Positions 4,895 to 16,545 are shown, numbered from the stretch's first letter. The stretch is DNA of 64,000 nucleotides from Candidatus Latescibacterota bacterium (GCA_016187725.1 JACPJE010000043.1:26086-90085); one strand, 5' to 3'. Numbers and translations are program-made. Notes: generated by a model not told the origin, from the sequence alone.

Positions 4895-4902
4895 TCGGAG
4901 TT

Positions 4903-5136
4903 ATGCCGACAGTTGTCATCGAAGGATACAAGTTCCGGTTCTATTCTTCCGATGTGAACGAGCCACCGCACTTCCATATTTTGCGCGGAGAATGCGAGGC
5001 CAAGATCTGGCTGCAGCCGGTAGTGGTGGAATACAATCGCGGCTATAACCGCGCCGAACTCAACCACGTCCTCAGGTTGACCCGTCAGCATCAGGTCAGA
5101 CTATTGGAGGTTTGGAATGAGTACTTCAGCAAGTAA
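4903..5136 (+). CDS. DUF4160 domain protein
   Basis: 77 aa, MPTVVIEGYKFRFYSSDVNEPPHFHILRGECEAKIWL, with the PPHFH motif typical of DUF4160. Markedly lower GC than the flanks. Confidence 0.8.
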   Translation: MPTVVIEGYKFRFYSSDVNEPPHFHILRGECEAKIWLQPVVVEYNRGYNRAELNHVLRLTRQHQVRLLEVWNEYFSK

Positions 5137-5383
5137 TATTGCCGAGCATGTCAGTGCGACTGAGGTGCGATTTGAGGGCAATATTTTGTATGTAACCCTG
5201 AGTGACAGTCGCCAGATCAGCGTGCCCTTAGAGAATGTACCGTGGCTGAAATGGTTGAACTCCGCCACTCCAGAACAGAGAGCCAGGTGGTCTCTTGAGC
5301 CTGGTGGTCTTGCTATCTACTGGGGCGAATTGGACGATGGCCTAGAGATCAGCCATCTATTGAGCATGCAACCGCTAATCTGA
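5117..5383 (+). CDS. DUF2442 domain protein
   Basis: 88 aa. ..VRFEGNILYVTLSDSRQISVPL..LAIYWGELDDGLEISHLL fits DUF2442. It overlaps the DUF4160 gene by 20 nt, the usual arrangement of this pair. Confidence 0.8.
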   Translation: MSTSASNIAEHVSATEVRFEGNILYVTLSDSRQISVPLENVPWLKWLNSATPEQRARWSLEPGGLAIYWGELDDGLEISHLLSMQPLI

Positions 5384-6587: not shown

Positions 6588-7745
6588 GTGTCAGGGCGGC
6601 AGTCCTATCTGGAAGTGCTGTGCGCTGAGCCTTTCCGGGTTTTCTTTCCGCTGGGGTGGCTGTGCAGTCTGGTGGGGGTTTCCCATTGGCTGTGGTATTA
6701 CCTCGGCTGGATAGACAGGTACTCGGGGTTCTACCACGGGCTTTTCCAGATCCAGGGCTTTGAGCTGGCCTTTGCCGCCGGCTTTCTGATGACGGCCATG
6801 CCCCGCTTCCTGGAGACGCCGGGGGCGCGGCCCTGGGAACTGGCCCTGGGCGTGTTGCTCCTGCTCGGCGGGGCAGTGGGGCTCTATCTGGGAGACCAGG
6901 TGTGGTCGCTGGGTGGCCTGCTGGCCATGCTCCTCTTTCTGATCGTCTTTGCCGGTCGCCGCTTTCCCCGCCGACGCGACAATCCTCCTCCTGCCTTTGT
7001 GTTCGTGGCCTTTGGCCTGCTCTGCGGCCTGGCCGGGGTGCTGCTTTTGTGGTGGCCGGCGGCAGATTTTCCCCAATTGGGCCAGCGGCTGCTGGAGCAG
7101 GGGCTGCTCCTGGGGCTGATCATGGCAGTGGGCAGCTACCTGGGGCCGCGGCTTTTGTACGGGCGGCACGAGGACCCCGTTACCCAGGGCCCGGCAGCGG
7201 GCCGCCGGCTGGCGGTGTTTGCCCTGGCCGGGCTGGCGCTGGCTGCCAGCTTCCTAGTGGAGGCGGGGGGAGCGGCAGAGGCGGGCAGGCTGCTGCGGGC
7301 GGCGGTGGTCACCGCGCATCTGTTGGTAGCGGTGGGCATCTACCGGCTGCCGGTGCGCCGGTGGCATCTGTATCTATTATGGCTCTCCTTCTGGTGCGTA
7401 CCAGGGGGATTGTGGCTGGCCAGCCTCTTTCCCGAGCACGAACTGCAGACCCTGCACCTGACCTTTGTAGGGGGCTTCGGGTCCATGACCCTGGTCATCG
7501 CCACCCGGGTGATCGTCGCCCACTGCGGTTTCGAGCGGTACTGGGACCAGAACACCTGGCCGCTGGCGGTCCTGACGCTTTGTTTCGCGCTGGCCCTGGT
7601 GACCCGGGTCAGCGCCGAGTTCTTCCTCGACTACTATTTCGGGATGCTGCATATGGCCGCTGGGTACTGGCTGATCGGGGCCCTGGTCTGGGGGCTGGTG
7701 TTCGTGCCCAAGATGATGCCCTGGCACGTGGCGGCCGAGGGCTGA
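6588..7745 (+). CDS. NnrS family membrane protein
   Basis: 385 aa and highly hydrophobic. N-terminal EPFRVFFPLGW and FQIQGFELAFAAGFLMTAMPRF motifs are typical of NnrS. GTG start lies 1 nt after the upstream stop. Confidence 0.75.
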   Translation: MSGRQSYLEVLCAEPFRVFFPLGWLCSLVGVSHWLWYYLGWIDRYSGFYHGLFQIQGFELAFAAGFLMTAMPRFLETPGARPWELALGVLLLLGGAVGLYLGDQVWSLGGLLAMLLFLIVFAGRRFPRRRDNPPPAFVFVAFGLLCGLAGVLLLWWPAADFPQLGQRLLEQGLLLGLIMAVGSYLGPRLLYGRHEDPVTQGPAAGRRLAVFALAGLALAASFLVEAGGAAEAGRLLRAAVVTAHLLVAVGIYRLPVRRWHLYLLWLSFWCVPGGLWLASLFPEHELQTLHLTFVGGFGSMTLVIATRVIVAHCGFERYWDQNTWPLAVLTLCFALALVTRVSAEFFLDYYFGMLHMAAGYWLIGALVWGLVFVPKMMPWHVAAEG

Positions 7746-7764
7746 GGGCCGGCTGGAACCAGAC

Positions 7765-7805
7765 AAAAGGGGTAGCCCCGGTGTTCCGGGACCACCCCCT
7801 TTTTT
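7765..7805. terminator. Bidirectional intrinsic terminator between convergent NnrS and propeller genes
   Basis: AAAAGGGGTAG-CCCGGtgttCCGGG-ACCACCCCCTTTTTT: nested GC stems flanked by an A-run on one side and a T-run on the other. Confidence 0.5.
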
Positions 7806-7842
7806 AGTTGCGCCGCGATCCTTTCAGCCCCTGGACCTCAGC

Positions 7843-9657
7843 TCAAGGGCCCTTGGTGTCGAAGACCTGGAGTTTCTTCGCGTGCTGCTGGGAGACGTTG
7901 ATGAGAATGCCCGTGGCCTCGTCCACCTTGTACTCGGGGCCGCGGCCGTCCATCTTGACCTGGCGGTCTGCCTCCCCGGTGCGCAGGCTCACGCCCATCA
8001 CCTCGGGCTTGTTGGTCTCGCCGGTCTGGCAATAGTTGTACTGACCAAACTTCTCGAAACTCTGGAGGCGGGTGGATCGGAGATTGGCCGCCAGTTTGTT
8101 GTCCTTGACGATCTGCTTGTTCCAGTTCTCGGCTACAGACCGGTGACCGTAGGAGCCGGTCTCTGCATTATAGCTTGCAGCCGCCATCGCTACCAGGGCC
8201 TGTGACAGCCCCTTGGCCAGGCGCATGCCCAGGTCGAGTTTGGGAGGGGGGATAGAGTGCCACCAGAGAACGCTGCCATCCGCGGCACTGAAGGCGATGG
8301 TGCTCTGGGTGGTCAGGGCGAAGATCTTGTCCCCCTCCAGAGCCACCTGCACGGGCACGTCCTCGTCGAGGTTGACCAGGTCCTTCATGCCGGGGGTGTA
8401 GGGGTTGCCGCCCACGCGTATCTTGCTCTGCGATTCGTTGACATCCAGGGGCACCAAATACTTGTAGTCCAGGGTCCCCAAGTCGATGGCCCGCAGGCTG
8501 CCGCGCGTGGCAAAGTAGAGCGCGTTGTCGCGGACACGCAGGGGCGTGGTCAGGGAGATCTCGAACTTCTTGCCCTTTCTCCCGGCCTTCTCGTCCAGCG
8601 TCTTGGTATCGGTGAGCACCTGGCCAGTGGCCTTGTCGAGGATAACCACGCCGTAGGGGGTCAACTCCTTGAAGTTGGGCTTGCCGGCCTCGTAGTACGC
8701 GAAGTTCCCGCCCATGCGGGCCACCAGTTTGTCGCCGGCGATCTGCAGCTCGGGCAGGGCAGTCTTGAACTCCGGGCTCTGCCATTTGACCGCGCCGGTA
8801 TGGATATCCACGGCCACCACCCGGTCCCCGGCCACCATGTAGGCGATGCCGTTTTCGACCTGGGTCATGCCATTGGTGTTGCCCAGGGCCTTCTTCTTGC
8901 CCATCGTGCCGGCTTTGAGGGCGCGGTCCAGCTTGAGGCTGGCTACCGGAGTTCCGTCCGCAGCCTTGAAGGTGTGGAGGCCCGCCCAATCGAGCACCAC
9001 CAGGTCGTCCACGACCAAGGGCGGGGCCTCGGCATAACTGATCTCCTCGGGCAGGGCGTACAGGAAATTGATCTGGCCGGTCTCGATATCCACCCCGATG
9101 ATCGCGCCTTTTTCCAGGCTTTGTGGCCTGCCCTTGCCCTGTCCCACCATGGGGGGAATGGCCCTTACCAGCGCCGTGCCGACGATCACCTGACCGCGCG
9201 CCGGGTCCGCGCTGAGGCCGATGAAATCTCCAGGGGCGAACCACACCGGATCGCTGCCAGACATCTTCTTGAGGACGCGCTGGGCAGAGGCCAGCGGAAC
9301 ATCTGGGTTCAGCTCCCACACCACCTGGCCAGTAGTCACATCCAGACAGCGGATCTTGGCCGGCTTGATCAACCCTTCCTTGACCTGGTAGATCAGGAAG
9401 GGCAGGCCAGGCAGGGGTTTGACCGAGTCGATATCGTAGTTCTTCATCAGCTTCTCGATCTTCCACAACTCCGCGCCCGTTTCGGGGTCGAAGCCGTAGA
9501 TGGTCTGGCTGGTGCCGGCGATGATGATGCCCAGATCATGGACCAGATGGAAGCGGATCTCTGAATCCAATTCCTTTTCAAAGAGCAACTTGCCGGCCAT
9601 GGTCTGCGCCGGCAGGAACAGGGCAGCGGCCAGCAGCAGGGCTGTCTTCCTCGTCAT
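7843..9657 (-). CDS. Secreted PQQ-like/BamB-like beta-propeller repeat protein
   Basis: 604 aa. Signal peptide MTRKTALLLAAALFLPAQTMA. Recurrent propeller strands (TGAELWKI, TGQVVWEL, TGAVKWQS, DGSVLWWH). Confidence 0.75.
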   Translation of the reverse strand: MTRKTALLLAAALFLPAQTMAGKLLFEKELDSEIRFHLVHDLGIIIAGTSQTIYGFDPETGAELWKIEKLMKNYDIDSVKPLPGLPFLIYQVKEGLIKPAKIRCLDVTTGQVVWELNPDVPLASAQRVLKKMSGSDPVWFAPGDFIGLSADPARGQVIVGTALVRAIPPMVGQGKGRPQSLEKGAIIGVDIETGQINFLYALPEEISYAEAPPLVVDDLVVLDWAGLHTFKAADGTPVASLKLDRALKAGTMGKKKALGNTNGMTQVENGIAYMVAGDRVVAVDIHTGAVKWQSPEFKTALPELQIAGDKLVARMGGNFAYYEAGKPNFKELTPYGVVILDKATGQVLTDTKTLDEKAGRKGKKFEISLTTPLRVRDNALYFATRGSLRAIDLGTLDYKYLVPLDVNESQSKIRVGGNPYTPGMKDLVNLDEDVPVQVALEGDKIFALTTQSTIAFSAADGSVLWWHSIPPPKLDLGMRLAKGLSQALVAMAAASYNAETGSYGHRSVAENWNKQIVKDNKLAANLRSTRLQSFEKFGQYNYCQTGETNKPEVMGVSLRTGEADRQVKMDGRGPEYKVDEATGILINVSQQHAKKLQVFDTKGP

Positions 9658-9714
9658 AGGATGCTCTCCTGTGCAAAGAGGTGGATGGAGAAGGGTTCGC
9701 TCATTAAAAAAGGG

Positions 9715-10005
9715 TTAGTGAAAGACTACCGTCGCTCCGCAGTTCTCCAGAAGTTTTTGCATGACCAGGCGGGAGGTGTGGAAGGAGATGTCCAGGCCCG
9801 CGGGAAAGCGCTGCTGGGCTTTTTCCAGGGCCAGTTGATCGACGGAGAGCAGGCCGTCGGCCCACAGTTGCACCTCCCGCACTCCCTGTTGCTGGTACTC
9901 TGCCAGGGACTGTTCCAGCACCTGGAGGGTGGAGGCCGTGAGGGAACCTTCCACCTTGACCACCACGGCCTGACTCCTGCGCTCCAACTCTGTAAGCCGG
10001 ATCAT
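9715..10005 (-). CDS. Small STAS-like (anti-sigma-antagonist fold) protein
   Basis: 96 aa. VVVKVEGSLTASTLQVLEQSL..VREVQLWADGLLSVDQLAL resembles a STAS domain. Weak call made by eye. Confidence 0.45.
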   Translation of the reverse strand: MIRLTELERRSQAVVVKVEGSLTASTLQVLEQSLAEYQQQGVREVQLWADGLLSVDQLALEKAQQRFPAGLDISFHTSRLVMQKLLENCGATVVFH

Positions 10006-10083
10006 ACTCCCTGCTTCCCTTTTTCCTCCCGCGCTACCCTTTTTTTGCCTGGCTCAGCGCCGCGAAACCACAGGCGACCTTAG

Positions 10084-10099
10084 TGCACAAGTTGTGCCA
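10084..10099 (-). promoter_or_regulatory. Candidate sigma-54 (-24/-12) promoter
   Basis: Minus strand reads CTGGCACAACTTGTGCAC: TGGCAC, 5 nt, GTGCA versus consensus TGGCAC-N5-TTGCW. It lies about 80 nt upstream of ATG 10005 and directly downstream of a sigma-54 activator gene. Confidence 0.45.
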
Positions 10100-10268
10100 G
10101 TAAGGCAAGGGCGCTCACGGCCTGGTGGCCAAAGGCTTAAGGAATAAATAGTTAGCGGATCGTTAGGCGAGGGGGACTGAGGGGGACTAGAGAAGGACCT
10201 GTGGAAAGGAAAATCGTCGCGCTTGCACGACTATCTAAGGCAAGTGCGGTGAAAATAGGATATTGTGA

Positions 10269-10293
10269 TTTTCCGTCTCGAAGTGACGGAAAA
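10269..10293. other. Perfect 9-bp-stem hairpin just after the activator stop codon (terminator or protein-binding palindrome)
   Basis: TTTTCCGTC-tcgaagt-GACGGAAAA. There is no clean T-run after it on the minus strand. Confidence 0.3.
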
Positions 10294-10303
10294 CCGTCAG
10301 GGA

Positions 10304-13300
10304 CTAGAGGCGAGGGCGCTGCAGGCCGAGTTTGCGCATCAGCCGTCGCAGGCGTTCGGGGTGGATGCCCAGCAGCTGGGCGGCCCCGCGCGGACCATAA
10401 ACGATCCAGTTGCAGGCCTCCAGGGCCTGCTGGATAAGCCGGCGCTCCTCCTCCTGGGTCCGACTCTGGCTGCGGGCCAGATGGTCGTCCAGGGCACAGA
10501 GATCCTGGGGTTCTCTGGTGAGGGGCCGGGCCGGGGTGGCCGGGGAAAGAGCCGCTCCCCACAAGGGCACATCCGCCAGTCGGATGTGGTTGTCCTCACA
10601 CAGCAAGACAGCCCGCTGCACCAGGTGCTCCAGTTCGCGCACATTGCCCGGCCAGGCATAATTCTCTAGATATCGCAGCACCTGGGCTTCGATGCGGGGC
10701 ACCGGGCGGTTCAGGTGGCGGGCAAAACGCTCGGCGAAGTGATGTACCAGCAGGCCGATATCCTCCTGGCGCTGGCGGAGGGGAGGCAGGGGCAACACAA
10801 AAGCGCTCAGTCGGAAAAAGAGATCCTCCCTGAACCTCCCCTGCGCCATGGCGCTGCGCAGATCCCGGTTGGTGGCGGCGATCACCCGCACGTCCACCTC
10901 GATGACCTGGTGCCCCCCCACCCGCTGGAGGGTGCCCTCCTGCAGCACCTGCAGGAGCACCTGCTGGGCCTCCAGGGGCAGGTCCCCCACCTCGTCCAGC
11001 AAGAGGGTGCCCCGGTCGGCCAGTTCAAAGCGGCCGACGCGGCGGGCCACCGCCCCGGTAAAGGCGCCCTTTTCGTGGCCGAACAACTCGGATTCGACCA
11101 GGCCCTCGGGGATAGCCCCGCAGTTGACCTGGATGAAGGGGCCGCCCTGCCGCCGGCTCAACTGGTGAATGGCCCGGGCCCCCAGGCCCTTTCCCGTGCC
11201 GGTTTCGCCCAGGATCAGCACGGTCATCTCGGTCTGGGCCACGGCGCGCAACTGCTCTATGGCATTGCGCAGGGTCCTGCTATTGCCGATGAACTGCTCC
11301 AGGCCCTGGGGCTGGCTCAATTCGCTGGCCAGGGCCTGGATGCGGTCCTGCTGCGGGTTGGGCTCCACCACCAACTGCACCGAGAGGGCTTCGGAATAGT
11401 TGAGGTCGCGGTCCACGGCCCGCACCTGGAAGGTATAGGTGCCTACCGGCAGATCGTTGTATTCCACCCGCCGCTGGTAGGTGGTACGCCAGTCCTCTTC
11501 GTACCCCACTAGCCGGTACACATAGGCCATCCGGCGGGGTGCGGTGGTGAAGCTGGAACCTTGGAACTCGAAGCCGACCAGTTTCTGGGAGACGGAGATG
11601 GCGGTGGGCCCCTCTGGGCCGTAGCGCCGGTCCGCCACCACGCCCCGCAGCTTGACCATCGGCGGCGAAGCCACCGGGATATAGCGGGTGACCCCGCCCT
11701 CCGTGGCGATCCACATATGGCCGTCCCGGTCCTGGAGGACCTTCTGGACCGCGTCGTGGACCAGGCCGTCTTTTCTGGACAGGCTCTGGAACACCTGGCC
11801 GTCGAAGCGGGAAACCCCGCCGCCATAGGTGCCGAACCACAGGTGGCCGTCGCGGCTCTGGAAGATGGAGCGCACATTGTTGTCGGCCAGGCCGTCCTGC
11901 TTGGTGAAGGTGGTGAACTGCTCTCCGTCAAAGCGGGAAACCCCGCCGCCCCAGGTGCCAAACCACAGATTTCCCTCCCGATCTTCGAGGGTACACCACA
12001 CATTGTCGTGGGCCAGGCCATGCTCAGTGGTATAGGTCCTGAAGTGCTCCCCGTCAAAGCGACTCACCCCTGACCAGGTGCCGAACCACAGGTTCCTCTG
12101 CCGGTCCTGGCAGACGCACCACACCCGGTCGTGGGCCAGACCGTCCTGCGCCCTAAAGCTCCTGAAGTGCTCCCCGTCAAAACAGCTCACTCCCCCGTCC
12201 CGGGTGGTGAACCACAAGTTCCCTTCCCGGTCCTGGCAGATGCACCACACATTGTCGTGGGCCAGGCCATGCTCAGTGGTATAGGTCCTGAAGTGCTCCC
12301 CGTCAAAACAGCTCACCCCGGCCTCGTTGGTCCCGAACCACAGCCGGCCCTGGCGGTCTTCGCAGACGGTCCACAAAAAATCAGCAGCCAGCCCCTCGCG
12401 GGTGGTGTAGTTCTTGAATCGCCGACCGTCGAAGCAACTGGCTCCCCCATCTCGGGTGGCGAACCACAGATTCCCCTGCCGGTCCTGGCAGATGTCCTCC
12501 ACCTCCTCCCCAGCCAGGCCCTCCTCCCTGGTGAAGGAGGTCAGGTGTCCCCCGTCGTAGCGATTGAGCCCGCCACCCCAGGTGCCGAACCACAGATTCC
12601 CCTGCCGGTCCTCGCAGGTGCCCCATGCCCGGTTGTGGCCCAGGCCATCCCTGGGGGTGAAGATGCTGAACTGCTGGCCGTCATAGCGCCAGATTCCGCC
12701 GCCCTGGGTGGCGAACCACAGATTCCCCTGCCGGTCCTCCAGGACCCCGTTTATGCCCCCGCGCACTCCCCGGCTCTCAGCGGCGAGAGCGGTGAACTGC
12801 TGGCCGTCGTAAAAGCCCAGGCCCTGGGCAGTCGCTAACCACACCTTGCCGCCCCGGTCGACCAGCACCAGGGTGGCATGATCGGCGGGCAGGCCCTCGG
12901 CAGCAGTGAAGGTTTTGAATTGCCGGCCGTCATAGCGGCTGAGGCCGGCCCCGGTGCTGAACCATAGATTTCCTGAGCGGTCCTCCACCATGGAGCTGAT
13001 CACCGAATGGGGCAGGCCCTCGGCAGGGGGCTTGAAATCCCTGCCCTCACAGCAGATCACTCCCTCCCTCTGGGTGGCGAACCACAGGTTCCCCTTGGTG
13101 TCTGCCAGCATGGAGTGAACAGCTAAACCCTCCAGTTCGCAGCCGGCAGCAGTGAAGCGGGTGAACTGCCTGCCATCGAAGCAGCACACCTGACCATCCT
13201 GGGTCCTGCACCACAGGTGGCCCTGGCGGTCCTCCAGCATGGAGACCACGGCACTGTCCGCCAGACCATCTTCGACCGTGAAAACTTCGAACCCCTGCCC

Positions 13301-13891
13301 ATCGTACCGGCACAGCCCCTTCTGGGTGGCGAACCACAGGCTGCCCTGCCGGTCCTCCAGGATAAAGGTCACCTCATTGTCCGCCAGGCCGTCTTCGGCG
13401 GTGAAGGTCCTGAACTGCTGGCCGTCGTAGCAACACCCCCCTTCGTCGTGGGTGCGCAACCACAGCCGGCCCTGCTGGTCCTGGAGGATCTGGACGATGA
13501 GGGAGGAGGGCAGGCCGTCCTGGACCGTGAAGCAGTGCCACCCCCCCTGGTGAAAGCCGCTGCCGGCCTCGACCACCTTGCCCGTTGCCGGGGCGGAATA
13601 AACTCCCAAGCGCCAGCGACTGGACCATCCGGCCATGGCCCCCTTCCAGGACGGGTCGGCGTTGAGCTGTTTCTGGTGTTGCTTTACCTGTGAGGGGGAT
13701 TCGAGGGCGAAGAGCTGGCTGAAGATATGCGGGGGTTGAGCGCGGGGGCAGGGCGTCGGATCGGCCAGGCCCTGCTGGGTCAGCAGGGGGACCAGGCGCC
13801 GGCTGAAGTAGGCGGGAAACTCGTCCAGGCGCTCCGGCGCTAGCCAGAAGGAGAGGCGGGTCAGGGTGGTCATGGGCAGCAAGGTAGGCAT
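10304..13891 (-). CDS. Sigma-54-dependent transcriptional activator with N-terminal Reg_prop beta-propeller repeats and a Y_Y_Y domain
   Basis: 1195 aa.
- 15 tandem ~41-aa repeats (DGL..N.V..I..D..G.LWF.T..G...FDG).
- Y_Y_Y-like segment ([26 protein letters not shown]).
- AAA+ domain with [14 protein letters not shown] (about 11050-11067) and LLLDEVGD.
- C-terminal Fis-type HTH.
- No hydrophobic TM or signal segment seen. Confidence 0.9.
11994..12058. repeat. 65-bp perfect direct repeat, copy 1 (inside the propeller coding region)
   Basis: caccacacattgtcgtgggccaggccatgctcagtggtataggtcctgaagtgctccccgtcaaa, identical to 12243-12307. Confidence 0.85.
12243..12307. repeat. 65-bp perfect direct repeat, copy 2
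   Basis: Identical to 11994-12058, offset 249 bp (two propeller repeats). Both encode [22 protein letters not shown]. Confidence 0.85.
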
Positions 13892-13930
13892 GGCCCCGGC
13901 GGGCTGTCAAGAATCGGGAGTCAGTGCAGC

Positions 13931-14953
13931 TCAGACAAAAAGCGGCCCTGCCAGGTCCGTGCCTTCGGTCTCCAGGCCGAACTCCCGCAGGACGATCCGG
14001 CGGACCTGCCGCACTTCCTCCACACCTTGGGGGACCAGGGTGCCCAGCAGCAGGCGGGGGATGTGGTTGCGCAGCCACTGATCGACGAATTCGCCGGGCA
14101 CCCCCAGCCGCTTGCAGGGCCACACCATCTTGTCGGCCACCAGCTGGCAGCGCTCCAGCTTGCCAAAGGCGGAGATGGGCTGCTCGTCGAAGGTGCTGCG
14201 GTTGACCGAGACCAGGCAGGCCCCGCCCAGCAGGGCCTCGACGGTGAGCACGGCCTCGACACCGTGGCGGTAGTAGGCGCTCTCGCTCACCCCGCACAGC
14301 TGGGGCTCCTGCAGAAAGGCGGCGCGGGCGGCGCCCCGGCTGAAGAGTTTGTACCCGGAGTGGAAGTCGGGGAATTCCTCCAGGGCGGTGGCGTACTCCA
14401 GGCGCAGGGGCACACCCGTGCGGGCGGCGTGAAAGGCCAGGGCATCGAGGAGTACCCGGTCGGCCAGTTCCTCGAATTCCCCCCGCGGGAAGCCCATGGG
14501 CCGGTGGAGGGAGAGGCGTTTGCCCAGGACCATCACCTCGCCGGCGCGGGGGCGGGCATGGCGGGCAGCGCGCACCAGGTTGGGCAGTTCGTTGGCAAAG
14601 TGGTCGCCGTCAGCGTCCACCGTGGCGAAGTACTCCAGTTCCGGCTCTTCCCACAGGAGGGCGACGCCCTGGCGCAGGGCCTGGAGCTTGCCTCTGTTGC
14701 GGGGGGCGCAGCACACCTGCACCCCGTGCCGGCGGGCCAGATCCTCGGCCATTTCTTTGCCGCTCTGCTCCCCATCCACGCTCAGGCAGATGGAGGAGGG
14801 GCGCTCTACTTGTAGGAGCAGGGCCTGGACCGTGTCGGTCAGCAGGGCAGCGCCCAGGGCGGCATCGGCGCCGGCAGGGAGGTACACGGGGAGGACCACC
14901 CCAGTGTGTTGGCGCAAATCAGCCAGGGCGCCCATCAGGGAGGAGTCGGTCAT
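13931..14953 (-). CDS. GT-A fold (family 2-like) glycosyltransferase
   Basis: NRGKLQALRQG and the DADGDH (DxD) motif. ATG 14953 overlaps the upstream stop as ATGA. The track start at 15004 is judged an extension. Confidence 0.65.
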   Translation of the reverse strand: MTDSSLMGALADLRQHTGVVLPVYLPAGADAALGAALLTDTVQALLLQVERPSSICLSVDGEQSGKEMAEDLARRHGVQVCCAPRNRGKLQALRQGVALLWEEPELEYFATVDADGDHFANELPNLVRAARHARPRAGEVMVLGKRLSLHRPMGFPRGEFEELADRVLLDALAFHAARTGVPLRLEYATALEEFPDFHSGYKLFSRGAARAAFLQEPQLCGVSESAYYRHGVEAVLTVEALLGGACLVSVNRSTFDEQPISAFGKLERCQLVADKMVWPCKRLGVPGEFVDQWLRNHIPRLLLGTLVPQGVEEVRQVRRIVLREFGLETEGTDLAGPLFV

Positions 14954-16545
14954 GGCTTGGCCGGCACGTCTCCCTGGGTCCAGGCCCCGTCGATGAGGCG
15001 CCACAACTGGCCGGTGGGGTTTTTATCGCGCAGCTCGGGGGGCAGGCGGTCGGGGCGCACGTTGTCGAAGGACTGGAGCATAGCGAAGCGCCGCAGCGAG
15101 GCCGGGATACCCACGGCGGTGAAGCCCGGATGGCCGGTGGCCGGATAAGGACCGCCGTGGTTCATGGCTGGCGAGACGGCCACCCCGGTGGGCATCTTGT
15201 CGTCGAGTAGGCGGCCCACCTTGCGGCGCAGGATGGGGGCCAGGCGCTGGTACAGGGCCTCGTCGCTGCCGGCCCGATCGGTGTACAGGGCGCCGGTCAG
15301 GTTGCCCTCGAAGGTGCGGCAGATGGCTTCGGCCTGGTCGTCGTCGTCGGCCACCACCAGCAGGCTGGCATTGCCGAAGGCCTCCTGCTGGAGCGCTTCG
15401 GGGGCGGCCAGGAAACGCCCGCCGTCCACCCGCAGCAGGGTGTTCTGGAAGGAGCAGCCGGTGCCGCCGCCGGCCGCGCCGCCCACCAGCACTTCGGCCC
15501 CGGCCTGCTGCAGGGCCGTCACACTCTGCCCCAGGCTGTGCTCCACCCCCTCGCCCAGCAGGGTGCCCACGGCAGCGGCGCGGAACTTTTCCACGATCAT
15601 ACCGACGAAGGCTTCGGTCTCGGCGCCTTTGAGCAGGAGCACCACGCCCGGGTTGGTGCAGAACTGTCCGGCCCCCAGCAGGCAGGAGGTGGTGAATTCC
15701 CCGGCGATCTCGGCGGCCCGCTCGCGCAGGGCCCCCGGCAGGATGAGCACCGGGTTGATGCTGCTCAGTTCCAGGTAGATGGGTTTGCCCGCCCGGTCCG
15801 CGGCCTCCTTGAGCACCAGGCCGGCCTGGCGCGAGCCCGTGTACCCGGTGGCGCCGACCAGCGGGTGGGAGACCAGGCCCTGGCCCACCTGGTGGTCGGT
15901 GCGGTAGATCAGCTGCACGGTGGCCTCCGGCAGCCCCGCCTCTTTGACTGCGGCCAGGGCCTCTTCGGCCAGCAGGCGGGTGGTGCCCGGATGGGAGGAA
16001 TTGGCCTTGGCGATCACTGGGTTGCCGGCAGCGATGGCCGCGGCGAAATCCCCGCCGGCCGCGCTGTTGAAGGCCAGGGGGAAATTGTTCGGCCCAAAGA
16101 CCACCACGCCCCCTTCGAGCGGGGCGAAGAAGGAGCGGATGCCGGCCTTGGTGTCGATGGTGGGCAAGGTCCAGGATCCCTGGCGGGCCGCCAGGGCGGC
16201 CTGGCGCAACTGGCCGGTGGTGCGGGGCAGTTCCACCTCGTCGAGGCGGGGCTTGACCGGCAGGGCGCTCTCGGCGTAGGCCAGGGTCGTGATCTGGGCC
16301 CGGCGGGCCTCGATGCGGCCGGCGAAGAGTTCGAGGAAGCGGGCCCGGGTCTGGGGGGCGATGTCCAGCAGGGCTTCGGAGGCCCGGGCGGCAGCCTCGA
16401 TCGCCTCTTCCACTTCTTCGCGGCTGCTGACGGGGTAAAGCTCTCCGGTAGGCTGGCGGGTGGCGGGATTGAGGGGGGCGAAGGTGCCCGCGTTCTCGGA
16501 GGGGCGCCACTGGCCGGCGACCAGCACCGGTTGGAGTTGAGTCAT
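14950..16545 (-). CDS. NADP-dependent aldehyde dehydrogenase (alpha-ketoglutaric semialdehyde dehydrogenase-like)
   Basis: 531 aa. FGPNNFPLAF, YLELSSINPV and GAGQFCTNPG (catalytic Cys) motifs. Confidence 0.85.
   Translation of the reverse strand: MTQLQPVLVAGQWRPSENAGTFAPLNPATRQPTGELYPVSSREEVEEAIEAAARASEALLDIAPQTRARFLELFAGRIEARRAQITTLAYAESALPVKPRLDEVELPRTTGQLRQAALAARQGSWTLPTIDTKAGIRSFFAPLEGGVVVFGPNNFPLAFNSAAGGDFAAAIAAGNPVIAKANSSHPGTTRLLAEEALAAVKEAGLPEATVQLIYRTDHQVGQGLVSHPLVGATGYTGSRQAGLVLKEAADRAGKPIYLELSSINPVLILPGALRERAAEIAGEFTTSCLLGAGQFCTNPGVVLLLKGAETEAFVGMIVEKFRAAAVGTLLGEGVEHSLGQSVTALQQAGAEVLVGGAAGGGTGCSFQNTLLRVDGGRFLAAPEALQQEAFGNASLLVVADDDDQAEAICRTFEGNLTGALYTDRAGSDEALYQRLAPILRRKVGRLLDDKMPTGVAVSPAMNHGGPYPATGHPGFTAVGIPASLRRFAMLQSFDNVRPDRLPPELRDKNPTGQLWRLIDGAWTQGDVPAKP

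Follow-up and report, generated by a model that had tools for sequence, protein, structure and literature searches.

Can a tandem beta-propeller sensor of a type known from the Bacteroides periplasm act inside the cell, joined straight to a sigma-54 activator, and control the operon beside it? The question is raised by a 64,000-nt stretch of DNA from a Candidatus Latescibacterota bacterium (GCA_016187725.1, JACPJE010000043.1:26086-90085), here called the window, in which positions 7843 to 13891 hold three minus-strand genes, for a 1195-aa sigma-54 activator, a 96-aa protein and a 604-aa propeller protein. An earlier note on this DNA had read the first gene product as a propeller sensor lacking a membrane segment and fused to an AAA+ activator, and the three genes as a compact sensor-regulator-output module. 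The results described below make it probable that the activator works in the cytoplasm as a soluble bacterial enhancer-binding protein (bEBP) of the one-component kind, in which a tandem propeller and Y_Y_Y sensor follows a small alpha+beta domain, and that it controls the downstream operon by the mechanism proposed below.

Architecture, location and relatives of the activator

The open reading frames (ORFs) of all three genes lie exactly where the earlier note had placed them. The activator gene and its parts are as follows, HTH standing for helix-turn-helix.

10304..13891, minus strand: activator gene, an ORF of 1195 aa for a one-component sigma-54 activator, with Pfam and NCBIfam domains
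13556..13891, minus strand: N-terminal domain belonging to no family, ~aa 1-112; beta-alpha-beta-alpha-beta in the AlphaFold2 model, with the motif ARLSFW...GVFSRLFE...DPxW kept in relatives
11672..13540, minus strand: 15 Reg_prop blades, ~aa 118-740, from Pfam, motif count and Foldseek; modelled as a tandem beta-propeller sensor
11363..11659, minus strand: Y_Y_Y domain (Ig-like beta-sandwich), ~aa 745-843; 39.8 bits in Pfam, beta strands in the model
11294..11362, minus strand: short conserved helical linker, aa 844-866; AlphaFold2 helix at aa 846-857, of low confidence in the monomer
10565..11293, minus strand: sigma-54 AAA+ core and lid, aa 867-1109; Sigma54_activat 228.5 bits, AAA_lid_14 92.4 bits
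10322..10492, minus strand: C-terminal Fis-type HTH, ~aa 1134-1190; HTH_8, three modelled helices, NCBIfam alignments to aa 1191

In the 1195-aa protein, Reg_prop was matched at E = 1.7e-82 (Pfam), motif counting gave 15 blades with a period of 40-43 aa, and the Pfam Y_Y_Y envelope spanned aa 785-842. The Sigma54_activat match (aa 868-1032) scored 228.5 bits against a cut-off of 20.2, and the columns of Walker A (GETGTGKG), GAFTGA (aa 942-947) and Walker B (DE, aa 966-967) were invariant in an alignment of 34 relatives. The AAA+ core was 45-50% identical to those of FlrC and FleQ. The part from ~aa 850 to aa 1191 aligned with the NCBIfam models of NifA-, NorR- and NtrC-type activators, every score being lower than the equivalog cut-off; the core is therefore that of a generic bEBP and not that of an orthologue of a named regulator. 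A receiver domain, HisKA, HATPase_c and an AraC-type output were all absent from the Pfam matches at E <= 0.01, and when the N-terminal domains of five proteins were scanned, Pfam assigned none of them to a family, even with the threshold relaxed to E <= 10. As judged from its sequence, the 1195-aa protein carries the tested defining features of a bEBP, namely the core, the HTH and nearby candidate sites, and is predicted to bind DNA.

We then considered the predicted structure. The AlphaFold2 model, built on a 34-sequence alignment, had a mean predicted local distance difference test score (pLDDT) of 87, exceeding 90 over aa 10-110. Its order was a beta-alpha-beta-alpha-beta domain (aa 9-108), four-stranded blades (aa 118-740), a beta-sandwich (aa 745-843), a short helix (aa 846-857), the AAA+ core and a three-helix C-terminus with helices at aa 1146-1159, 1170-1174 and 1178-1187. 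In Foldseek searches of the PDB, the top matches were two sensors of Bacteroides thetaiotaomicron, the periplasmic domain of BT4663 (4A2L/4A2M) and the extracellular domain of BT3049 (3V9F), with E from ~1e-49 to 1e-45, ~800 aligned columns and TM-scores of 0.65-0.67 on the target; the AAA+ domains of FlrC, FleQ and NtrC1 came next with TM-scores of ~0.9. A PDB sequence search likewise returned 4a2l and 3v9f for the sensor, and NifA, FleQ, ZraR and PspF for the AAA+ core. The sensor is thus predicted by the model to have the fold of the periplasmic sensors of Bacteroides hybrid two-component systems (HTCS).

Location was assessed by hydropathy. The highest 19-residue Kyte-Doolittle mean of the whole 1195-aa protein was 0.99, inside a propeller blade. 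The linker between the Y_Y_Y domain and the AAA+ core (aa 844-866), which occupies the position where relatives have a transmembrane (TM) helix or a long coiled coil (P0087, P0073 and P0095 compared), is polar and contains no hydrophobic window. The N-terminus is not hydrophobic, and neither the first start codon nor the second ATG at 13873 (giving 1189 aa) yields a signal peptide; since there is no start codon between the upstream stop and the start of the ORF, the sequence further upstream cannot hide a signal peptide. Among the best 120 database relatives, of which ~100 were full-length, none of the GAFTGA-bearing proteins had a TM-like window in the stretch that leads from Y_Y_Y to the AAA+ core. 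In the same scan, the kinase relatives P0087, P0106, P0111 and P0115 scored 2.3-2.5 at the expected places as positive controls, and relatives with kinase or SpoIIE outputs gave 1.8-2.5 at the expected position. Since the TM-less form recurs across relatives while the same sensor has a TM helix in kinases such as P0087, it is characteristic of the family and not a chance feature of this gene. The targets of the AAA+ core and HTH, sigma-54 holoenzyme and DNA, are inside the cell, and there is no barrier between these two domains and the sensor; the topology predicted from the sequence thus supports a cytoplasmic location of the propeller and Y_Y_Y sensor.

The description of the activator in the earlier note was borne out by these results: its 15 Reg_prop repeats and Y_Y_Y-like domain, its complete sigma-54 core with GAFTGA and a Fis-type HTH and without a receiver, its ~110-aa N-terminal domain lacking an assignment (conserved and confidently modelled as alpha+beta), its lack of a TM segment and signal peptide, and the cytoplasmic sensor that follows by topology.

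A survey of how common the architecture is, as proposed in that note, found ~100 full-length relatives. In a word-indexed database search, ~100 clusters with the same Pfam set covered 83-100% of the query. They came from metagenome-assembled genomes (MAGs) of Latescibacteria, Gemmatimonadetes and Handelsmanbacteria, with several pairs on one contig, and bore source names such as 'sigma 54-interacting transcriptional regulator' or 'NtrC family response regulator/ligand-binding sensor domain-containing protein'. When close relatives of the whole 1195-aa protein were sought in reference genomes, nothing matched; a scan with the Y_Y_Y region gave 104 relatives, the best 80 of which were retained as loci. 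These 80 were mostly from Latescibacterota, the others from Gemmatimonadota, Poribacteria, Zixibacteria and further phyla, and closed Latescibacterota chromosomes had at least four to five copies among them. The architecture is neither rare nor unique but belongs to a large paralogous family already present in databases under generic names.

Elsewhere, the same sensor is fused to histidine kinases with and without a TM helix, to SpoIIE/PP2C phosphatases and to AAA+ cores with GAFTSA. Counts of relatives per output class are lower bounds, as the GAFTGA pattern left out the GAFTSA subgroup (L031-L046, e.g. L041 8366-11566 and L032 8309-11590), whose members are ~1070 aa long, TM-less and without the N-terminal domain. 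TM-less histidine kinases with this sensor were seen at L012 8006-11698, L018 8315-11680 and L020 8444-11434; in these, Y_Y_Y leads directly into a coiled coil (DPRDEQIDELE...) and then HisKA. Because TM-less kinases carry the same sensor, a wider class of cytoplasmic propeller sensors is suggested. The N-terminal domain also stands ahead of the propellers in relatives whose output is of the sigma-54, SpoIIE or kinase type (P0073, P0087, P0095 and L012) and is absent from some paralogues, namely the L007 activator and the GAFTSA subgroup. One of the proteins that have it, the kinase P0087, also carries a signal peptide and TM helix; the domain thus appears workable on either side of the membrane.

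The control region and the downstream operon

The activator gene is followed on the same strand by a control region and two genes, which together with it are called the cassette.

10273..10289, palindrome, strand not applicable: candidate enhancer site A, CCGT-N9-ACGG, ~205 nt upstream of the predicted start
10214..10230, palindrome, strand not applicable: candidate enhancer site B, TCGT-N9-ACGA, ~150 nt upstream of the predicted start
10084..10099, minus strand: -24/-12 sigma-54 type promoter TGGCACaacttGTGCA, one mismatch to the core; predicted start near 10073
9715..10005, minus strand: predicted cytoplasmic STAS-fold protein of 96 aa, first gene after the promoter; AlphaFold2 and Foldseek
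7843..9657, minus strand: BamB/PQQ_2-type beta-propeller protein of 604 aa, last gene of the unit; signal-peptide-like N-terminus

The predicted start at ~10073 lies about 68 nt before the ATG of the 96-aa gene. The one-mismatch -24/-12 pattern alone is not above chance, with 2 found against ~6 expected per window. In 8/8 orthologous cassettes, a -24/-12 element was present 185-225 nt past the activator stop codon with a score of 8-10 of 11; in random 450-nt windows of the same loci, the probability of a score of at least 9/11 was 0.049 and that of at least 10 was 0.010. More distant paralogous loci scored 11/11 (L005) and 10/11 (L004, L042 and L064). The significance of the promoter thus comes from its conserved position across loci and not from the pattern match itself. 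Scans for sigma-70 promoters in 7500-14200 found none, and Rfam and tRNA scans found nothing within the module.

The promoter lies about 110-130 nt beyond the two palindromes, which are the only two matches to YCGT-N9-ACGR in the 64-kb window. Two or three TCGT-N8/9-ACGA palindromes precede the promoter in each orthologous cassette, and the choice of an N9 or N8 spacer tracks the activator clade. Of 63 strict palindromes in 1.39 Mb of fetched loci, 16 fell in the 2.4 kb of cassette intergenic DNA, an enrichment of ~150-fold, and palindrome pairs within 150 nt all stood directly after one of these activator genes, including those of L003 and L007. A protein-binding site is favored over a terminator because the sequence itself is conserved, there are several copies and T-tails are not consistent. 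From this pattern, we infer that the palindromes are putative binding sites of the activator. Between the candidate enhancer sites and the promoter, the decamer AGTCCCCCTC occurs twice in tandem (10169-10188, minus strand) and is partly conserved in the closest orthologue, L081.

No Pfam or NCBIfam match at E <= 0.01 was obtained for the 96-aa protein. Its AlphaFold2 model had a pLDDT of 95.3, and the top 20 Foldseek matches in the PDB were SpoIIAA, RsbV and STAS structures, with E from 6.5e-6 and TM-scores of 0.68-0.78. An exhaustive profile search of 1.84 billion representatives returned a family of 42 clusters at 50% identity, nearly all members being 90-118 aa long and starting with MIRLTEL. 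The invariant Asp56 is followed by Q/P/R/H and then L/V/R/M, with Ser or Thr in none of the family; we take the position after Asp56 to be the one aligned with the phosphorylated serine of SpoIIAA. No cassette contains a gene for a SpoIIAB/RsbW-type kinase or for any HATPase-type protein. Although tblastn with the 96-aa protein found the three nearest loci only, a broadened profile also revealed a STAS-like first gene in the distant cassettes L004 and L007. The L007 copy passes the Pfam STAS model (25.1 against 22.6 bits) and is tied to the window family by profile (E = 6e-6). Since the STAS gene stays first while the cargo genes vary among paralogous cassettes, a regulatory role may be assigned to its product; judging from this gene order, the STAS protein is most likely part of the control circuit, as a feedback partner of the activator, rather than of the exported function.

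The 604-aa protein matched PQQ_2 with 65.1 bits (E = 9.8e-18, Pfam) and has a hydrophobic N-terminus (19-residue Kyte-Doolittle mean of 1.59 at aa 7). It was tried as a BamB orthologue (TIGR03300, 42 bits against a cut-off of 285) and as a PQQ-dependent dehydrogenase (TIGR03075, 25 bits against 480), and both assignments were rejected; with scores so far under the family cut-offs, neither function is assignable. Its PDB sequence matches were marginal, and the generic PQQ_2 repeat model alone was passed.

The order of activator, a gene of 95-99 aa, zero to two further genes and a PQQ_2 propeller recurs in L001, L002, L003 and L081-L084, with PQQ_2-type homologues in the equivalent position in L001, L081, L082, L083 and L002. 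L083 and L084 share their synteny with the window, down to the neighboring aldehyde dehydrogenase and NnrS genes. L081 (1-9821) and L082 (1-15615) each contain two tandem cassettes on one contig. The cargo genes of these cassettes have diverged, but every cassette has kept palindromes and a promoter of its own right behind its activator gene. Other cassette genes encode products with signal peptides or lipoboxes, and one cassette has an NHL-repeat propeller in place of PQQ_2. In L007 (12042-15671), a canonical Pfam-STAS first gene is followed by genes for exported proteins of SnoaL/DUF4440-like type and for a flavin amine oxidase whose N-terminus is lipobox-like. As this cargo is unrelated to the propeller cargo, the family appears to control varied envelope functions.

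What the earlier note said of the downstream module also stood. Its near-consensus sigma-54 promoter carries one mismatch and is positionally conserved across orthologous loci far above chance; its small STAS-like gene encodes a protein with a STAS fold in the predicted structure and no Pfam STAS match; its secreted PQQ-like propeller has the PQQ_2 repeats and, by hydropathy, a signal-peptide-like N-terminus; and the gene order of its module recurs in independent contigs together with conserved -24/-12 elements and upstream palindromes.

As for the surroundings, genes for a Glycos_transf_2-like protein (357 aa) and an aldehyde dehydrogenase (531 aa) lie upstream of the activator on the same strand (13931-16545, minus strand), 39 nt from its start, and the same pair precedes the activator orthologue in L083. 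Because the pair is directly upstream and is repeated there, the activator may be co-transcribed with it. A gene for an NnrS-family membrane protein (6588-7745, plus strand) is convergent with the 604-aa propeller gene, as it is in L083. Further away, a small gene pair (4900-5383, plus strand), in which a product with a DUF4160-like ending by eye (MPTVVIEGYKFRFYSSDVNEPPHFH...) is followed by a DUF2442 protein (5117-5383), resembles a toxin-antitoxin-like pair.

Proposed mechanism and its alternatives

In the mechanism that we propose, the HTH of the activator would bind palindromes A and B. In the resting state, the dimeric sensor would act through the short helical linker to keep the AAA+ domains unable to form an active ring. 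A cytoplasmic signal on the propellers would shift the relative position of the two Y_Y_Y C-termini, and this shift would free the ring to assemble and hydrolyze ATP, so that sigma-54 holoenzyme could form the open complex at ~10073. The output would be the small STAS-fold protein and proteins with export signals. Negative control by restrained assembly of the AAA+ ring is of the kind described for NtrC1 and DctD, and a scissor-like movement has reportedly been proposed for the periplasmic sensor of BT4663. By analogy with such proteins, the propellers may bind a ligand and gate the ATPase.

Several points weigh against this explanation. Both the negative control and the scissor movement are borrowed from what is described for other proteins, and the feedback role suggested for the STAS protein is drawn from gene order. 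The HTH_8 match (aa 1147-1187) scored 21.7 bits, 0.3 below the Pfam cut-off of 22. Site B could also be taken for a weak terminator, since it was flagged as a hairpin whose 6-bp stem is followed by a T-rich tail. That TM helices and signal peptides are absent was judged by hydropathy alone, with internal positive controls. Finally, an RpoN box was present neither in the window nor in 84 related loci from family-carrying genomes. A degenerate RpoN-box scan showed that the Latescibacteria MAG CAVTNQ01 (L102) encodes a complete sigma-54 with AID, CBD and DBD, and many other MAGs bearing the label Latescibacterota or Krumholzibacteriia have close relatives of it. For the genomes that carry the activator family, the presence of sigma-54 is strongly, if indirectly, indicated by the intact GAFTGA loops and by the conserved -24/-12 elements.

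A different use of the propellers, as a protein-docking platform to which the STAS-fold or another protein binds and so sets the activity, would make the system a partner switch or feedback loop like PspA-PspF or FleN-FleQ. This live alternative, which is compatible with the explanation given above, we consider unlikely but worth keeping in view. It would account for the fixed first place of the STAS gene in a regulated unit whose cargo differs between paralogous cassettes, and for the small and restricted STAS family of 42 clusters. The same sensor is, moreover, fused to SpoIIE/PP2C phosphatases (P0073, P0110 and P0120), and characterized members of that class, RsbU and SpoIIE, act on STAS proteins. 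However, the STAS-like protein has no phosphorylatable serine, the cassette encodes no RsbW/SpoIIAB-type kinase, many paralogous activators have no detectable downstream STAS gene, and the PDB entry titles of 4a2l and 4a2m describe the nearest sensors of solved structure as glycan-binding. Extending this idea, we can imagine, with a similarly low expectation of being right, that the double propeller is a general intracellular receptor in Latescibacterota, Gemmatimonadota and neighboring phyla that has been wired to sigma-54 activators, kinases or PP2C phosphatases, with the STAS protein binding the propeller or the N-terminal domain as a direct partner. If so, the AAA+ activator would be subject to partner-switch feedback of a new kind, by which the export of envelope propeller proteins would be controlled.

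The adjacency of activator and operon might also be incidental, the palindromes being terminators or structural elements, the promoter being served by another activator and the protein regulating elsewhere. The terminator-like features of site B fit this view, and cross-talk is conceivable in genomes that carry several paralogous activators of the family. What makes it very improbable is that the TCGT...ACGA sequence is conserved and not just its pairing, that it occurs in two or three copies, that some loci have AT-rich 8-nt centers with no consistent T-tails, and that each tandem cassette keeps its own palindromes and promoter with a spacer that follows the activator clade. A further possibility is that a TM helix or signal peptide escaped notice and the protein is an ordinary extracytoplasmic sensor, or that the fusion arose artificially in assembly or gene calling. 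In favor of the former, all solved Reg_prop/Y_Y_Y sensor structures found here are periplasmic or extracellular domains from Bacteroides, and hydropathy was the sole TM test. We nevertheless give these readings hardly any credence: the hydropathy maximum of 0.99 lies inside a blade, the linker is polar, the ORF is not extendable and TM helices were found in the kinase controls. The same uninterrupted architecture is, moreover, shown by ~100 clusters that are independent of each other and stem from different assemblies, closed chromosomes among them.

Comparison with known systems

The Bacteroides HTCS sensors BT4663, BT3049 and BT4673 (PDB 4A2L/4A2M, 3V9F and 3OTT) share with the window protein the tandem Reg_prop propellers followed by Y_Y_Y, and in both the signal would leave through the C-terminus of Y_Y_Y. 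By contrast, the window protein lacks their signal peptide, TM helix, HisKA/HATPase pair, receiver and AraC output; its sensor has 15 blades and is preceded by an additional alpha+beta domain, and a sigma-54 AAA+ core is fused straight to it. The hosts differ too, being Latescibacterota and Gemmatimonadota here and Bacteroidota for HTCS.

In BguR/SusR-type regulators of Bacteroidota, a propeller and Y_Y_Y sensor shares one polypeptide with the DNA-binding output that it drives, with no phosphorelay, and a palindromic operator lies between the BguR gene and the first regulated gene (bioRxiv 10.64898/2026.01.10.698779). The window system resembles BguR in the type of sensor, in its single polypeptide and in the palindromes between regulator and first target gene. 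BguR has a signal peptide, one TM helix, a periplasmic sensor and a GerE-type HTH that serves sigma-70-type transcription (bioRxiv 10.64898/2026.01.10.698779), whereas the window protein is predicted to be wholly soluble, with no TM helix, and its output would be an ATP-driven sigma-54 activator. Our literature search found no paper linking a propeller, Reg_prop or Y_Y_Y sensor to a sigma-54 activator; the preprint on the membrane-spanning BguR alone turned up.

The products of the downstream genes can be compared in the same way. The 96-aa protein has the predicted fold of SpoIIAA, RsbV and RsbS but differs from them in lacking a Ser or Thr after Asp56, a Pfam STAS match and a nearby partner kinase or anti-sigma gene. 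The 604-aa protein shares PQQ_2 repeats and an N-terminal export signal with BamB/PQQ_2 proteins, but is longer than BamB and has no lipobox cysteine.

Ligand-gated bEBPs (DmpR and XylR with V4R-type, NorR and NifA with GAF domains) and the linker-controlled NtrC1 and DctD have in common with the window protein a sensory module, a GAFTGA-bearing AAA+ core and a Fis-type HTH, and here as there palindromic sites lie 100-200 nt upstream of a -24/-12 promoter. The difference is in the sensory module, which at ~860 aa is far larger than the sensory domains in the matched bEBP structures. Placing the same module in the cytoplasm on a sigma-54 ATPase would widen both the sensory repertoire of bEBPs and the settings in which the propeller sensor is used. 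With its activator, operator-like palindromes, promoter and short target operon within ~6 kb, the cassette is compact and directly testable, and it could reveal how movement of the Y_Y_Y C-terminus becomes output without a membrane and what the propellers sense intracellularly. The family to which it belongs makes up a large, expanded and uncharacterized regulatory share of phyla known almost only from metagenomes.

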